Below are positions 2,204 to 8,284 of a stretch of DNA of 43,396 bases, one piece after another (the stretch's first letter is position 1; each line of letters begins with the position of its first letter). The DNA lies in NCBI GenBank assembly GCA_017694255.1, contig JADINC010000049.1:1-43396 (forward strand), in the 5' to 3' direction. Position numbers and translations under genes: made by a program. The notes below the pieces were generated by a model. It was given only the letters and a program-made list of their open reading frames with translations. It ran no database searches and had not been told where the DNA came from. Origin of the DNA: Candidatus Enterousia avistercoris (lineage in GTDB: Bacteria; Pseudomonadota; Alphaproteobacteria; Rs-D84).

Positions 2204-2776
2204 TTATTGTTTGGCGTATAAAAAGCATTCTGGTTCGTGCGAATTAATAATCCCCACAGATTGCAGATATGCATAAATAGTGGTCGTTCCAACAAATTTC
2301 ATCCCACGACGTCGCAAATCCGCGGATATTTTATCAGATAATTCTGAACGTGTTTTATCAAATTCGTATATTGTGGCGCCGTTTGTCCAGCCCCACAGAT
2401 ATTTATCAAATGTTCCATGTTCTTTGACAATTGTGGCAAATACCCGTGCATTGTTAATTGTTGCGGCAATTTTGCGTGCATTACGTATTATGCCTGCGTC
2501 TTGCATTAATTCTGCGCATTTTTTATCATCATATTTACATACCGTCATCAAATCAAAATTATCAAATGCCCGGCGGAACGCGTCGCGTTTATTCAATATA
2601 CATTCCCACGACAGTCCGGCCTGGAACGTTTCCAGCATCAGCATTTCGAACAGTGCGGCATCGTCATGCACACCCACACCCCATTCGTTATCGTGATATT
2701 TTATATAGTTTTTATTTTTCGGGTTGGCCCAGTGGCATCGGCATTGGCCGTCTGGCCATGTTGGCGTTTTTTTCAT
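2204..2776 (-). CDS. tag: DNA-3-methyladenine glycosylase I
   Basis: Start MKKTPTWPDGQCRCHW at 2776. Motif run YHDNEWGVGVHDD..LFEML.LETFQAGLSW..IL.KR..FR.AF..FD and KFVGTTTIYAYLQSVGIINSH matches the Tag family along its whole length. ATGA overlap with the ogt stop. Confidence 0.9.
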   Translation of the reverse strand: MKKTPTWPDGQCRCHWANPKNKNYIKYHDNEWGVGVHDDAALFEMLMLETFQAGLSWECILNKRDAFRRAFDNFDLMTVCKYDDKKCAELMQDAGIIRNARKIAATINNARVFATIVKEHGTFDKYLWGWTNGATIYEFDKTRSELSDKISADLRRRGMKFVGTTTIYAYLQSVGIINSHEPECFLYAKQ

Positions 2777-3264
2777 AATGCACCTTCGTGTGTTAACAGT
2801 TTTATTTTCGTCTGTACACCGCCGGCATAGCCCGTCATATCCCCATTTGCGCCCACCACACGATGACATGGAATAATTATAGATATCGGATTGTGCCCAA
2901 TTGCCACGCCCACCGCGCGCGGAGATTTGGCGCCGATGCGCCGGGCAATGTCGCCATATGTTGTGGTTGTGCCATATGGAATTTTAGACAATTCACGCCA
3001 TACGCGTTTTTGGAAATCTGTTCCCCGCGGGGCCAATGGTAATTCTGTAATGCATGGATGCAAACCATTAAAATATTTGTCCAGCCATTGTTTCGTTTGG
3101 ATAATTATGGGCACATTTGAATGAATTGCCCCGGCGGGTATGCCCGCCATATAGTATTTTTGCCCGGCAAACCACAGCCCAACCAGTGCATTATCGTGGG
3201 CTGTAATGGTAATTTTTCCAATTGGTGAATTATATTCATCAATAAAAAACGAATTTGGTTCCAT
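2773..3264 (-). CDS. ogt: methylated-DNA--protein-cysteine S-methyltransferase
   Basis: Active-site IPCHRVVG motif, and RVWRELSKIPYGTTTTYGDIA upstream of it. Confidence 0.9.
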   Translation of the reverse strand: MEPNSFFIDEYNSPIGKITITAHDNALVGLWFAGQKYYMAGIPAGAIHSNVPIIIQTKQWLDKYFNGLHPCITELPLAPRGTDFQKRVWRELSKIPYGTTTTYGDIARRIGAKSPRAVGVAIGHNPISIIIPCHRVVGANGDMTGYAGGVQTKIKLLTHEGAL

Positions 3265-3299: not shown

Positions 3300-4001
3300 T
3301 TATTCGCGCCAAACGACGGAATCAAACAGCGCATCTACAGATTTGCGTAAATTTTCATCATTGAAAAATTGTGCGCGCATTTCTGGCGTTGTGTTGTGTT
3401 CAGAATCTTCGAAATGTGGAATGTATTTTTGCACCGCAAATTTTTTTACCCCGCGCGCATGTAAATCATTTGCAATTTCCATCAAGTCCATTTTTGATAC
3501 AAACCGTGGGTCGCACGTAATACGAACCTCGTAATCTTTACCGGTTGATTGCCACACATCCAGACTGCGCATCATGTGGTCATACGCAACATTTTGCCCG
3601 ACCAGAGCAGGATATTTATCGCGTCGTGCCTTGCAATCCAAACCAATCCAGTCCACCACATCCGCGGCCTGGGCCAGTGTTTCTGGATAAAAACCATTTG
3701 TGTGCAGTCCAATGGCAAACCCCAGTTCCCGCACACGTCGCATATATTCGATTGCCACGCCGCCCTGCATCAATGCTTCGCCACCAGAAAAAACGACGGC
3801 TTCCAGTTTTCCGACACGACTTTTCAGCCATTCGAAAACTTTTTCTGGATCGTATTCGCCGTCATGTACACCAATCAGATGTGGATTGGAACAATACGCG
3901 CACCGCAACGGACACCCCACCAGAAACAGCACCGCAGCCAATTTTCCGGGGTAATCAATTGTCGTGAACGACACCAATCCACCAATCTGAATCTCTCTCA
4001 T
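3300..4001 (-). CDS. nrdG: anaerobic ribonucleoside-triphosphate reductase activating protein (radical SAM)
   Basis: CPLRCAYCSNP, a CxxxCxxC radical-SAM cluster motif, near the N-terminus. Lies immediately downstream of nrdD and the small glycyl-radical ORF. Confidence 0.85.
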   Translation of the reverse strand: MREIQIGGLVSFTTIDYPGKLAAVLFLVGCPLRCAYCSNPHLIGVHDGEYDPEKVFEWLKSRVGKLEAVVFSGGEALMQGGVAIEYMRRVRELGFAIGLHTNGFYPETLAQAADVVDWIGLDCKARRDKYPALVGQNVAYDHMMRSLDVWQSTGKDYEVRITCDPRFVSKMDLMEIANDLHARGVKKFAVQKYIPHFEDSEHNTTPEMRAQFFNDENLRKSVDALFDSVVWRE

Positions 4002-4008
4002 TTTTTTA

Positions 4009-4194
4009 TTATGCCGCTTTTTTCATTAATTCACTGTGACGTTGGCCTGTGGTCAGACTGTTAGCCTCGGTAAATGTTTTTCTCTCGCAAAATTCAGAAT
4101 ACTTTCCAATATTAAAATTGGATACAGGTCTGATAAAACCCATAGAACGCGAAAATACTTCACATGGTGTTCTTTGCGCATTTGCTTCTGACAT
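4009..4194 (-). CDS. stand-alone glycyl-radical peptide equivalent to the C-terminal tail of NrdD
   Basis: 61-aa ORF with a strong RBS (agggagg, 8 nt before the ATG). EVFSRSMGFIRPVSNFNIGKYSEFCERKTF matches the NrdD C-terminal pattern R-x-x-G-[YF]...[FW]N-x-GK-x-x-E-x-x-x-R (E. coli RRVCGYLG...FNAGKQEEVKRR). Confidence 0.6.
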   Translation of the reverse strand: MSEANAQRTPCEVFSRSMGFIRPVSNFNIGKYSEFCERKTFTEANSLTTGQRHSELMKKAA

Positions 4195-4230
4195 AATGTT
4201 TTCCTCCCTTTCTGTTTTGTTTGTTTATTG

Positions 4231-6279
4231 TTATTTTAAAACTGTGTTTGATTCACTGTTTTGATTTGCCGCGATTTCCGCATCGCACTTTGGACAGAAC
4301 TCATACCGCCCCGGCAGGTAACCGTGTTTTGGACAAATAGAGAATGTCGGCGTTAACGTCATATACGGAATTTTGTAATTTTCGAAAATCGTACGCACGA
4401 TTTTTTCTGCGGCCGCGCCACTGGACACAGGTTCGCCCATATACAGGTGCAACATCGTCCCGCCCGTGTATTTGCGCTGTAAATCTTCTTGGTGTTCCAG
4501 TGCAACAAACGGGTCATCGGTATAATTCACCGGCAGTTGCGTTGAATTTGTATAATACGGTGCGTCTTTGGTTCCCGCGGTAATAATATCCGGGAAATTT
4601 TTCACGTCCGTTTTTGCAAATCGGTACGAGCAACCTTCAGCTGGGGTGGCTTCCAGATTATACAGGTTGCCAGTTTGTTCCTGGAACTGGACCAGGTTTT
4701 CACGGATAAAGTCCATTAAATCCAGCACCATCTTTTTACCCATCGGGGTTGCAATATTTTCTTTATCATTTGTAAAGTTGCGAACCATTTCGTTTGCACC
4801 ATTTACACCGATTGTTGAAAAGTGATGATCCCAATTGCCCAGATACCGGCGTGTAAACGGATACAGACCGCGTTCCATATTTTTGCTGATTATGCGGCGT
4901 TTGATTTCCAACGAATCACGCGCCAAATCCAACAGACGTTTCAGTTCACGGAACAGACCATCGCGGTCGCCCTTGTGAATATATCCCAACCGTGCCAGAT
5001 TTATCGTTACAACACCGATTGACCCGGTTTTTTCTGCTGACCCAAACAGTCCCCCACCGCGCTTTAACAATTCGCGCACGTCCAGACGCAACCGACAGCA
5101 CATAGAACGCACATCGGTCGGATTCAAATCAGAATTCAAGAAATTCTGGAAATTTGGAATTCCATATTTTGCCGCCAAATCAAACAGCGGTTTAACGTTC
5201 GGATGTTCCCACGGGAAATCTTTGGTTATGTTATATGTTGGTATAGGAAACGTAAATGGCCGTCCCATGGCGTCGCCTTCGGTCATAACTTCCAGAAACG
5301 CTTTATTTATAATATCCATTTCGTTTTGCAAATCGCCATATGTGAAATCCATTTGCTTTTTGCCGATAAATGGATGTTGTGTCTTTAAGTCTTCGGGACA
5401 TGTCCAGTCGAATGTAAAGTTAATAAACGGCGTCTGGGTCCCCCAGCGACACGGCACCGCACAGTTAAAGATTAATGTCTGCATGGCGTTTTTAACATCT
5501 GCATACGACAGATTATCCACGCGAACATACGGCGCCAGGTATGTATCCACCGACGAAAACGCCTGGGCCCCGGCAAATTCATTCTGCAACGTGCCCAAGA
5601 AATTCACCATATGCGAAATCGCAGTTGCCATGTGGCGCGCCGGTTCACACTGCAAATATCCTGGGACACCATTGAACCCTTCGTATAACAGTTCTCGCAA
5701 CGACCATCCCGCACAGTATCCGGTCAACCACCCCAGGTCATGAATATGAATTGATGCGTTTTTGTGCGCCTCTGCAATTTCGCGTGGGTACAGGTTTAAC
5801 CAATATTCTGCCGTCACCCGTTCAGATGTACGCAAAATCAAACCGCCAATTGAATATCCAACATTTGCATTTTCTTTGATGCGCCAGTTTGAACCACCGA
5901 CGTATCCTTCGATAACTTCGACCGCGTCAACATAAGAATCGCGGATTTCGGTCCGCTTTTGACGATATATAATATAAGATTGCGCCGTTTTGTACGCGTG
6001 CGCGTCCATCAGTGATTCGATAACCGATTCTTGGACATCTTCGACAGTTGGATTTTTATCAACAAATTGCATCTCCAGTTTTTTCAACGCATTTTGTGTA
6101 ACATTTGCGATTTGGTCATCTGATATTTCGTGCGTGACGGCAACCGCCTTTTTAACCGCGTCAAAAATCTTTTTCGCATCAAATGGAACCGATTCCCCAG
6201 ACCGCTTTTGCACAACACGCAAACGGGTACTAAGTGTCGGAATAATCTGTATTTTGTTATCGTTTTCAGACATAGACAT
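4231..6279 (-). CDS. nrdD: anaerobic ribonucleoside-triphosphate reductase (class III RNR), large polypeptide ending right after the Zn-ribbon
   Basis: N-terminal ATP-cone (VVQKRSGESVPFDAKKI...YIIYRQKR). Long NrdD-like catalytic body. C-terminal CPKH..x13..CPKC zinc ribbon. No R-x-x-G-[YF] glycyl-radical motif in this ORF. Confidence 0.9.
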   Translation of the reverse strand: MSMSENDNKIQIIPTLSTRLRVVQKRSGESVPFDAKKIFDAVKKAVAVTHEISDDQIANVTQNALKKLEMQFVDKNPTVEDVQESVIESLMDAHAYKTAQSYIIYRQKRTEIRDSYVDAVEVIEGYVGGSNWRIKENANVGYSIGGLILRTSERVTAEYWLNLYPREIAEAHKNASIHIHDLGWLTGYCAGWSLRELLYEGFNGVPGYLQCEPARHMATAISHMVNFLGTLQNEFAGAQAFSSVDTYLAPYVRVDNLSYADVKNAMQTLIFNCAVPCRWGTQTPFINFTFDWTCPEDLKTQHPFIGKKQMDFTYGDLQNEMDIINKAFLEVMTEGDAMGRPFTFPIPTYNITKDFPWEHPNVKPLFDLAAKYGIPNFQNFLNSDLNPTDVRSMCCRLRLDVRELLKRGGGLFGSAEKTGSIGVVTINLARLGYIHKGDRDGLFRELKRLLDLARDSLEIKRRIISKNMERGLYPFTRRYLGNWDHHFSTIGVNGANEMVRNFTNDKENIATPMGKKMVLDLMDFIRENLVQFQEQTGNLYNLEATPAEGCSYRFAKTDVKNFPDIITAGTKDAPYYTNSTQLPVNYTDDPFVALEHQEDLQRKYTGGTMLHLYMGEPVSSGAAAEKIVRTIFENYKIPYMTLTPTFSICPKHGYLPGRYEFCPKCDAEIAANQNSESNTVLK

Positions 6280-6302: not shown

Positions 6303-6351
6303 ACACAATATATAGTGGTTGTTTTATTAATTCGATAACAATATATAGTAT
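6303..6351 (-). promoter_or_regulatory. tandem NrdR boxes upstream of nrdD
   Basis: acacaatatatagtgg (6303-6318) matches the NrdR consensus acaCwAtATaTwGtgt at 15/16. taacaatatatagtat (6336-6351) matches at 13/16. Cores are 33 bp apart, 24-72 bp upstream of the nrdD ATG. Confidence 0.55.
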
Positions 6352-6533
6352 AACGTATTCTGTGGCAACACATAAAAACAAAAATTTTTTTTATTTTTTG
6401 CTTTACTTTTAAAAAGGGGGCTTTTCTGGGGCATACGTGCGTATCGCATCTGTATGAATCGAATACCAAATATTCTTTTGTGTCAAGAAAACACAATTTT
6501 TCACATCGAATACGATTCGAATTTTATAAAAAA

Positions 6534-6581
6534 ACACAAAATATAGACATGTTTTTACGAATCGTTAACTATATATAGATA
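6534..6581. promoter_or_regulatory. possible second, weaker pair of NrdR-like boxes
   Basis: acacaaaatatagaca (6534-6549, 12/16) and taactatatatagata (6566-6581, 11/16 with a perfect core ctatatatag). Cores are 32 bp apart. The background is AT-rich, so chance is plausible. Confidence 0.3.
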
Positions 6582-6697: not shown

Positions 6698-8284
6698 ATG
6701 GTAAAAAATATATATGAAATGCTGCACCAGGTATGCAGTCAAAACAAAGATCGTATATTTTTTGTACGACAGAATGAAACATATGCTGACTTGTTGCGTC
6801 GCGTTAAACAGCGTGCGGTGCTGTTGGCAAAGAAATTCGGGATAAAGCGTGGTGATACGGTTGCGATTTTGTCGGGTAATACCCCAGAATTTATAAAATC
6901 GTATTTCGCCATCACGTCCCAGGGTGCACGTGTTTTGATGTTGGATACTGGGTTGAACAAATCAGAACATTTAAATATGATGCGTCGCACGAATTGTAAA
7001 TTGGCATTGGCCCAGCGTGAATATTTTGTTGATGGTGGGCCCAAAATGTATGATATCGAATCTATGGATGATACTGATGCGCGCGAATTCGTGGCTGCAC
7101 CAGCCGTGCCAGATGATATCGCCATGCTGTCATTTACATCGGGGTCGACTGGTAATCCAAAGGTTGTCGGTTTAACCCATGGGAATATAATATCGCTGGG
7201 CAATGGTGCGTTGTTTTACAGTCCGGTGATTCATCCAGGATATACATTCTATGGATTTTTACCGCTGTACCATATATATGGTGTAGTGATTAACATTATT
7301 GCACCATTGGTGTTGCGCGGAAAACTGCTGCTACAGCCTGTATTAAATCCACGTGAATTTATGGCAGATTTTAAAAAATATCGGCCAGAGGTTATACCAG
7401 CTGTTCCGCGCATCTGGGAAACGTTTTACAAGAAAATTATCGCAACCGCCAAAGAAAAACACGTTTATACATTAATGCGCGTCGTTATATCAATGCGCCA
7501 TGTTTTGCGTGCGATTGGATTGGGGGCAATTGTGAACAAGGTTGTTAAACCTGTTCATGATTTATTTGGCGGTAATACGCGTGTTTTGGTATCTGCGGGC
7601 GCAACGTTAAAGCCAACCATCCGCAAATTTTTTGAACGATTGGGTTTTGTTGTGGGTGATTGTTATGGACTGACCGAAACAACAGGGCCGGCGAATTTTA
7701 ACTTTGCGTTTCGCATGCCGGATGGTTCAATGCATTACGCAGGTCCATTGCCTGGGAATGAAATTGAAATTCATAATCCTGACAAACATGGAATTGGCGA
7801 AATCTGGGTTCGTGGGAATTTGGTTATGCCCGGCTATGTTGATAATGATGACGCAAATGCGGCAGCATTTGAAAATGGCTGGTTCAAAACGGGCGATCTG
7901 GGGAAACTGGATCGGCGTGGGCGCCTGGTGGTCAAAGGACGCAAAAAACAAGTAATCGTTCTGGACAGTGGCAAAAACGTATATCCCGACGAACTGGAAG
8001 ATTTATATATGCAAAACAAAGACATATTGGCCGCGGCCGTATTTGAATATGTTATAAATGGGAAAACGGTGCCTTTTGCCGTGTTCCAGGTGTCGCCTGG
8101 GACAACCATGGCGCGTGTAATCACAATGGTCAAGGCGTCAAACCTGAAAATTGCCCCGTATAAATGGGTGCGTCATTTTGCAATAACCGAAGACGAATTG
8201 CCCCAAACATCGGCGCGCAAAATAAAACATTTTGCTGTCAAAGAATTGCTGGATGCGGGAAATTTTTCGCGTGGGGCGGCATAA
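6698..8284 (+). CDS. AMP-dependent acyl-CoA synthetase/ligase (long-chain fatty-acid-CoA ligase-like)
   Basis: AMP-binding signature LSFTSGSTGNPKVV, YGLTETTG, and GWFKTGDLG...KGRKK motifs. Confidence 0.85.
   Translation: MVKNIYEMLHQVCSQNKDRIFFVRQNETYADLLRRVKQRAVLLAKKFGIKRGDTVAILSGNTPEFIKSYFAITSQGARVLMLDTGLNKSEHLNMMRRTNCKLALAQREYFVDGGPKMYDIESMDDTDAREFVAAPAVPDDIAMLSFTSGSTGNPKVVGLTHGNIISLGNGALFYSPVIHPGYTFYGFLPLYHIYGVVINIIAPLVLRGKLLLQPVLNPREFMADFKKYRPEVIPAVPRIWETFYKKIIATAKEKHVYTLMRVVISMRHVLRAIGLGAIVNKVVKPVHDLFGGNTRVLVSAGATLKPTIRKFFERLGFVVGDCYGLTETTGPANFNFAFRMPDGSMHYAGPLPGNEIEIHNPDKHGIGEIWVRGNLVMPGYVDNDDANAAAFENGWFKTGDLGKLDRRGRLVVKGRKKQVIVLDSGKNVYPDELEDLYMQNKDILAAAVFEYVINGKTVPFAVFQVSPGTTMARVITMVKASNLKIAPYKWVRHFAITEDELPQTSARKIKHFAVKELLDAGNFSRGAA

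Follow-up and report, generated by a model that had tools for sequence, protein, structure and literature searches.

In those ribonucleotide reductases (RNRs) of class III that have been characterised so far, the glycine that stores the radical is part of the catalytic chain, NrdD, so that oxygen destroys a protein of ~80 kDa. Single-chain NrdD proteins of this kind, from Thermotoga maritima (4COI/4U3E), phage T4 (1H78), Prevotella copri (8P23) and Escherichia coli, are the closest described relatives of a locus found in “Candidatus Enterousia avistercoris” (Alphaproteobacteria, Rs-D84; assembly GCA_017694255.1), on a contig of 43,396 nucleotides (nt) (JADINC010000049.1) that was analysed over its full length and is referred to here as the window. 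The locus shares with them the set and order of domains as well as the partner activase, NrdG, and its closest curated model is PRK08270. The difference lies in how the domains are distributed, with the glycyl radical loop and the C-terminal segment on a chain of their own, only 61 amino acids (aa) long, while the Zn ribbon stays with the body. We consider this a functional nrdD-nrdG operon whose class III RNR catalytic chain comes naturally as two polypeptides, each translated separately, a reading to which we assign a probability of roughly 85%. It rests on the structure of the genes and their translation signals, on the homology of each piece and the selection acting on it, on the phylogenetic spread of the split, and on relatives that are fused and tail copies that stand alone in phages.

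Other systems resemble this one in part. GrcA/YfiD is likewise a small stand-alone homologue of a glycyl radical C-terminus, presumably activated by the activase of the enzyme, and reportedly acts as a spare part of pyruvate formate-lyase, with a homologue (Y06I) in phage T4. Phage-borne copies are known for GrcA, and they were also seen for the NrdD tail. However, GrcA supplements a full-length PflB with a radical domain of its own, whereas the large chain described here lacks one, which makes the small chain obligatory. A Pfam scan of the small open reading frame (ORF), with E values up to 1, returned NRDD and not Gly_radical (PF01228). According to a 2026 review, formate lyases are the only enzymes for which such spare parts are known. 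The split class II RNR NrdJa/NrdJb (Pseudomonas aeruginosa, Thermus phage) is also encoded by two consecutive genes with a short gap and a C-terminal module on the second chain, but it uses adenosylcobalamin and its NrdJb chain is large and has no radical site; given the different class (II instead of III), it is an analogy and not a case of membership. Phage nrdD genes with introns, inteins or homing endonucleases (T4, Aeromonas phages) are annotated in pieces too. There the interruptions are mobile elements, and the fragments are spliced or unexplained, while here the genes lie 36 nt apart, with translation signals but no mobile element between them. The small polypeptides BssB and BssC of X-succinate synthase assemble with the catalytic subunit of a glycyl radical enzyme but, unlike the small ORF, carry no radical glycine. 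Phylogenomic and structural papers on RNRs place the glycyl radical domain at the C-terminus of NrdD and mention split genes for class II only. We found no description of a split NrdD in the literature searched, although this search was incomplete and an earlier mention in work on the Cupriavidus necator genes is possible, and there is no curated Pfam or NCBIfam model for the small protein. The split NrdD is thus apparently, rather than demonstrably, undescribed, and the small gene has already been named automatically in the RefSeq records of well-known bacteria.

All three genes are located on the minus strand. The large subunit, nrdD (6279..4231, with the TAA stop at 4233-4231), is 682 aa long and comprises an ATP-cone, i.e., the allosteric activity site (aa 22-111, 5947..6216; PF03477, 74 bits, E 1e-20), a catalytic barrel with the finger-loop motif MCCRLRLD (aa 393-400, 5080..5103), and, at its C-terminus, a Zn ribbon with the motif CPKH-x10-CPKC (aa 649-665, 4285..4335). 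The ORF terminates 17 aa beyond CPKC, and the RxxG[FY] motif is not on the barrel polypeptide. The ORF is followed by an A-rich spacer of 36 nt (4195..4230), CAA TAA ACA AAC AAA ACA GAA AGG GAG GAA AAC ATT, in which a Shine-Dalgarno (SD) sequence, AGGGAGG (4203-4209), lies 8 nt ahead of the ATG (4194) of the small subunit. This 61-aa protein (4009..4194; MSEANAQRTPCEVFSRSMGFIRPVSNFNIGKYSEFCERKTFTEANSLTTGQRHSELMKKAA) corresponds to the glycyl radical loop of NrdD and the segment after it. Its motif R-S-M-G-F (aa 16-20, 4135..4149) is the sole RxxG[FY]xxP match in the six frames of the whole window, and Gly19 (codon 4138-4140) is the predicted radical residue. The activase gene nrdG (3300..4001; 233 aa, radical SAM, with CPLRCAYC at aa 30-37, nt 3891-3914) starts with its ATG at 4001, 7 nt past the stop of the small ORF. 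A preliminary description, made from the sequence of the window, had already proposed this layout: an NrdD with ATP-cone, body and Zn ribbon but no radical motif, a 61-aa ORF behind TAA-CAA-TAA and a strong SD, and nrdG 7 nt further on. Direct reading bore out every one of these elements.

The two ORFs share the NrdD family profiles between them almost without overlap. In Pfam NRDD (562 positions), the large ORF covers positions 1-529 (E 1.8e-170) and the small one 532-562 (E 1.5e-4); in NCBIfam PRK08270 (684 positions), they cover 4-656 (1030 bits) and 649-682, respectively. Membership of the large ORF in the family is clear (PF13597, 568.8 bits against a cut-off of 26.2; NF006126, 1030 against 548), and nrdG matches TIGR02495 (NrdG2) with 183.9 bits against a curated cut-off of 131 (E 2e-54), as well as Pfam Radical_SAM. 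On T. maritima NrdD, the large ORF aligned to residues 101-609, and a profile of small-ORF homologues aligned to 614-645 (DEYMRIVGYLVPVSAFN...), spanning Gly621, weakly (E 0.5) and in the expected register; phmmer with the 61-aa ORF alone returned nothing from the PDB sequences. The score of the small ORF is weak by itself because the match is short, and the case for it comes from the exact complementarity of the profiles and from the preservation of the ORF in relatives. In addition, fused relatives carry the small-ORF sequence unbroken from the Zn ribbon, e.g., CPTCGAECEVWTRVMGY, or ...CPTCGAECEVWTRVMGYHRPVSSFNIGKKGEH... from Streptomyces and Microbacterium, which indicates that the small ORF really is the missing tail of NrdD. 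The similarity to NrdD C-termini that had been claimed for it was recovered by profile searches. In the crystal structure of T. maritima NrdD, Gly621 is the radical site, and its loop dips into the barrel toward the finger loop, for which an SCCR motif has been discussed (PMC4493059). The motif MCCRLRLD resembles it and would hold the presumed thiyl-radical cysteine(s).

Close relatives were collected from a scan with a single genome for each GTDB species, in which 232 genomes encoded a relative of the small ORF. The best 80 were examined; these are metagenome-assembled genomes of gut and rumen Alphaproteobacteria, many labelled Candidatus Enterousia. The small ORF had 351 database relatives, and the best 120 were 58-92 aa long with 79-95% identity; those that are longer have been extended upstream in a different frame and contain the true Met internally. 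The order nrdD, small ORF, nrdG was found by tblastn in all 80 genomes, with nrdG always 3-12 nt downstream of the small ORF, and 79 of them have an SD core ahead of its ATG. Every orthologous nrdD locus surveyed in these genomes had the split layout and not a continuous ORF. Both ORFs are under strong purifying selection. The pairwise ratio of nonsynonymous to synonymous substitution rates (dN/dS) of the small ORF has a median of 0.06 (81 ORFs, 54 codons), its entropies at the three codon positions are 0.32, 0.17 and 1.03, and 31 alignment columns are invariant, the glycine motif included. For the large ORF, dN/dS is ~0.05 (76 orthologues), and MCCRLRLD, CPKHGY and CPKCDAE are invariant in 76/76. 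Two typical alphaproteobacterial split-nrdD operons (L022 and L053) are labelled Bacteroides fragilis and Muribaculaceae and are probably mis-binned contigs.

The split is not restricted to this clade either. A profile of 26 small ORFs, run against 1.84 billion representatives (50% identity), recovered 2576 clusters at E≤1e-3, the best 150 of which were all 47-118 aa long, and with a second profile, made of 31 divergent tails, the yield was over 6000 clusters (90% identity), of which all of the best 120 were 53-92 aa long. The 32 tail sequences inspected all start with Met, and the tail core can be written as ER[TQ]xCE[IV][WFY][ST]R[VSA]MG[YF]xRP[VI]xx[FWY]NxGKxxE[FY]xxRxxFxE. Neighbouring genes were inspected at all loci for which they could be retrieved. 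One locus (L081) has the arrangement nrdD (690 aa), small ORF (61 aa), nrdG, an order shared by L084 and by the Sutterella locus L086, and split operons were also found in Paracoccus denitrificans (L170) and in a Turicimonas muris-type genome (L171). On plasmid pHG1 of C. necator H16 (L169), a 676-aa “ribonucleoside triphosphate reductase” is followed by a 66-aa coding sequence, which RefSeq names nrdD (H16_RS32675, WP_011154154.1) and which the activase gene overlaps by 17 nt. We take this split operon to be the anaerobic RNR locus of C. necator, whose nrdDG genes are reportedly required for anaerobic growth. A tblastn search of plasmids and chromids gave 163 records, mainly from Ralstonia (133), followed by Bradyrhizobium (7), Cupriavidus (5) and Paracoccus (4), with Allochromatium, Thiothrix and others among the rest. 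The split architecture is inherited and widespread in Proteobacteria, cultured denitrifiers included, so the suspicion that it might be confined to one genome can be abandoned. Small subunits often share their last residues: 98 of 116 in the clade end in -AA (...KKAA in the window, 4009-4020), and 54 of 255 from other lineages end in -AAE, endings reminiscent of ssrA-type C-terminal degrons. P0137, P0183, L089, L097 and L113 are further examples of one or the other ending.

Tail genes without the rest of the operon are found in phages. In IMG/VR contigs, 518 tail-encoding stretches were detected, and the best 80 were examined (L089-L168). All 80 are small ORFs; 72 have no match to the nrdD large subunit within 4 kb, and eight have one. 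Those lone tails that were inspected often lie between lysis genes (holin, endolysin) and the integrase, and further lone tails are present in L082 and L083 (4001-4177). A good example is a 58-aa protein named for T. muris (P0341), whose gene sits directly behind those for holin and endolysin, has phage tail genes on its upstream side, and is flanked by neither nrdD nor nrdG within 4 kb. With this prophage copy, the 57-aa small subunit of the T. muris-type operon (L171, 481-654) shares the core ...ERTKCEVWTRVMGYHRPTSSFNIGK.GEFA.RKYFTEEK, and both contain the lineage-specific RPTSSF. Viral tails are matched by phrog_4132, a PHROGs family of unknown function, and tblastn of the tail proteins against cultured-phage genomes gave no match in one run and two weak matches in another; the evidence for phages thus stems from the IMG/VR contigs. 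The presence of lone prophage tails, one of them matching the split subunit of its presumed host, suggests that the tail works in trans. Prophages appear to exploit the separate supply of the tail, and these copies may be taken as the best available hint for such a supply. In 14 of the 80 viral loci, a conserved ORF of ~110 aa (MKELRLDFPDYPAVEQEKDAER...FRCIENQGVADHI) stands beside the lone tail (L097, 3679-4008; L113, 3679-4008; L091, 3654-4004; L110, 4321-4635; L123, 3715-3999), overlapping the start of the tail gene by 14 nt in L097 and L113; it had no match in Pfam or PHROG. The nrdD large ORFs of L100, L101 and L102 are 856-1002 aa long, compared with 679 in the otherwise collinear L103, and the extra sequence, inserted near residue 282, looks like an intein.

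Fused and split forms were compared using 120 C-terminal fragments of the CxxH-type subfamily, retrieved with a chimeric query (end of the large ORF plus core of the small ORF). In 66 of 119 fragments, mostly from Actinobacteria, the chain is fused, with 11-41 residues from CxxC to the glycine, while the other 53 end 2-29 residues past CxxC, among them Rhodoferax, Phaeospirillum, Turicimonas and Gammaproteobacteria. The split-type large chains have a common extension, CPKCD[AE]E[LI][IL]A[RK]KR, and a few fused forms with long linkers (P0395-P0397) keep both this extension and the DERQxCE N-terminus of the small subunit. The break falls where a variable linker joins the Zn ribbon to the glycine loop. 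On a rough neighbour-joining tree (~85 residues, too weak for more than this), the two states are strongly clustered, with 9 changes against 36.5 when labels were shuffled, and the long-linker fused forms are nested among the split ones. Our reading is that the variable linker was split once or a few times long ago and that the parts have occasionally re-fused since. The Zn-ribbon pattern C-x2-H...C-x2-C is universal in the 119 fused and split relatives, and metal binding by its four ligands is putative. Cys11 of the small ORF (4162-4164), 8 residues before the radical glycine, is nearly invariant in the stand-alone tails, and a cysteine is present at the same distance in 60/66 fused relatives (e.g., P0394, P0405 and P0455). 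Speculatively, it could add a fifth or alternative metal ligand that bridges both chains.

If the operon works as a two-chain enzyme, the allosteric and active sites, the barrel with the finger-loop cysteines and the Zn ribbon would come from the 682-aa body, and the small protein would be made from its own strong ribosome-binding site. NrdG would then abstract the H atom of Gly19 on the 61-aa chain, whose loop would sit non-covalently in the barrel of the large subunit, by the MCCR finger loop, like the covalent tail of T. maritima or T4 NrdD. What we infer beyond the genes is that the chains physically assemble, that NrdG activates the small chain, in its free or bound state, and that this chain is exchanged or repaired. 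The radical-bearing piece being a separate 7-kDa chain, its supply in trans, or its replacement once oxygen has cleaved it, is conceivable in principle, and the GrcA-like role in exchange or repair that the preliminary description raised is plausible, with the lone prophage tails as circumstantial backing. Several considerations weigh on the other side. The expression of the two-chain enzyme, its complex and the formation of the radical are predictions. An AlphaFold2 model of the small chain alone (26 homologues) has a low-confidence fold (predicted local distance difference test score of 56, predicted template modelling score of 0.33), which would fit a segment that folds on binding and proves nothing. 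Our view is that of a 43-kb window, and a second, full-length NrdD could lie outside it. A metal site involving Cys11 could bind the small chain tightly, which would argue against free exchange, and, since fused and split states interconvert, the split may be selectively neutral instead of an adaptation for repair.

This last possibility is the most serious alternative, which we place somewhat short of an even chance. By neutral gene fission, the two chains would form an obligate, permanent heteromer that acts like a single-chain NrdD, an explanation that disputes only the notion of a replaceable part. It is consistent with how common both states are, with their interconversion on the rough tree (the apparent re-fusions having kept the split-type tail and the small-subunit N-terminus), with the position of the break in a variable linker, and with the tight coupling of adjacent genes in all of the 80 close relatives, and the split class II RNR provides a precedent. 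The repeated fusion and fission in the family are equally compatible with it. On the other hand, it does not easily account for the lone tails in 72 of the best 80 viral matches, or for the one in a prophage of a split-operon host lineage, nor for a split state stably inherited over a very large clade under strong selection. The phage copies favour repair or exchange, while the interconversion of fused and split forms is compatible with neutral fission.

At the opposite extreme, the small chain might be a diffusible and exchangeable protein cofactor, a proposal that, with all its parts, we regard as tentative and rather unlikely. NrdG would charge the 61-aa protein off the barrel, and the charged protein would then plug into the large subunit; after cleavage by oxygen or nitric oxide, only the 7-kDa piece would be discarded and replaced. 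Copies in temperate phages, sometimes with the ~110-aa partner, would keep the anaerobic supply of deoxynucleoside triphosphates of the host running. The cysteine 8 residues before the glycine may complete a docking metal site between the subunits, and the -AA/-AAE ends that recur among the tails may label copies outside the complex for turnover.

It is very improbable that the small ORF is a spare part only for a full-length NrdD encoded elsewhere, with the 682-aa ORF as a decaying or non-catalytic paralogue. The limits of the window leave room for such a gene, and GrcA does coexist with full-length PflB. However, the large ORF is under strong purifying selection, with its finger loop and Zn ribbon invariant, and belongs to an operon with nrdG behind the NrdR-box-like sites described below. 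The corresponding operon of C. necator pHG1, moreover, is the one reportedly required for anaerobic growth.

Even less credible is that a single fused NrdD chain is restored by programmed recoding (readthrough, frameshift or hop) or by protein splicing. In this genome the ORFs are in frame, and the spacer is short and A-rich. However, among the 79 loci with a locatable Zn motif plus the window (80 sequences), in which nrdD stops 8-21 aa beyond CPKC and the spacer measures 20-56 nt, the small ORF is in frame 0, +1 or +2 relative to nrdD in 32, 29 and 19 cases, respectively. In other lineages, the gap goes from an overlap of 26 nt (L084) to 211 nt (L086, Sutterella sp.). The variation in frame and spacer length excludes readthrough, frameshifting and a one-off error, and the window itself has two stops together with the conserved strong SD and ATG. 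Both readthrough and frameshifting were rejected on the frames of the relatives, and a split intein was rejected as well, the flanking segments (~17 and ~8 aa) being too short for intein halves. The preliminary description had invoked both the own translation signal and the two in-frame stops at the junction; the SD and ATG are kept in relatives and stand as evidence, but the stops are incidental to this genome, because the frame differs elsewhere. Its conclusion that the tail is a separate, independently translated gene, neither a sequencing error nor a product of readthrough, is upheld by the stop, SD and ATG kept in 80 genomes. We give virtually no weight to the idea that nrdD is really continuous and only looks divided through an error of sequencing or assembly, or through a pseudogenising mutation of recent date. 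The in-frame position of the small ORF, only 36 nt away, could speak for it; against it stand the same layout in 80 independent species genomes, with varying spacers and frames and a dN/dS of 0.06, and the split in complete genomes of cultured bacteria.

The region upstream of nrdD contains two NrdR-box-like palindromes, ACAATATATAGT (6305-6316 and 6338-6349), exact copies 33 bp apart that were detected by pattern search. They overlap the -10 element of a promoter-like site, TTGCCA-17-TATATT (6368..6340). NrdR boxes have a known consensus, from which regulation of nrdD by NrdR may be inferred. The pattern has 3 matches in the window against 0.59 expected, all of them in the intergenic region upstream of nrdD, the third being at 6568-6579. 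Divergently oriented upstream of nrdD is an AMP-binding (acyl-CoA-ligase-like) gene (6698-8284, plus strand). Such a gene is likewise found upstream in the Sutterella locus and in one further distant split-nrdD locus (L084), which suggests a conserved or co-transferred block. Directly downstream of nrdG, on the minus strand, are the DNA-repair genes tag (methyladenine glycosylase) and ogt (O6-methylguanine methyltransferase) (2204-2869 and 2773-3264, respectively). The longest tag ORF overlaps ogt by ~97 nt, so that tag probably really begins at the Met codon inside it, at 2776. Positions 1800-2192 encode an HNH endonuclease.

For glycyl radical enzymes in general, the way in which the buried glycine loop gets to the activase is an open question of mechanism, and a loop that is naturally a polypeptide of 6-7 kDa makes both its access and the repair of oxygen damage directly testable. 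The split form is present in tractable organisms such as C. necator H16, P. denitrificans, Ralstonia and Bradyrhizobium. Automated surveys that rely on full-length NrdD models, or that drop ORFs of 60 aa, will misjudge split enzymes as truncated. The lone prophage copies point to an unrecognised phage auxiliary gene. If exchange of the small chain were true, the spare-part principle would extend from pyruvate formate-lyase to the synthesis of DNA precursors.

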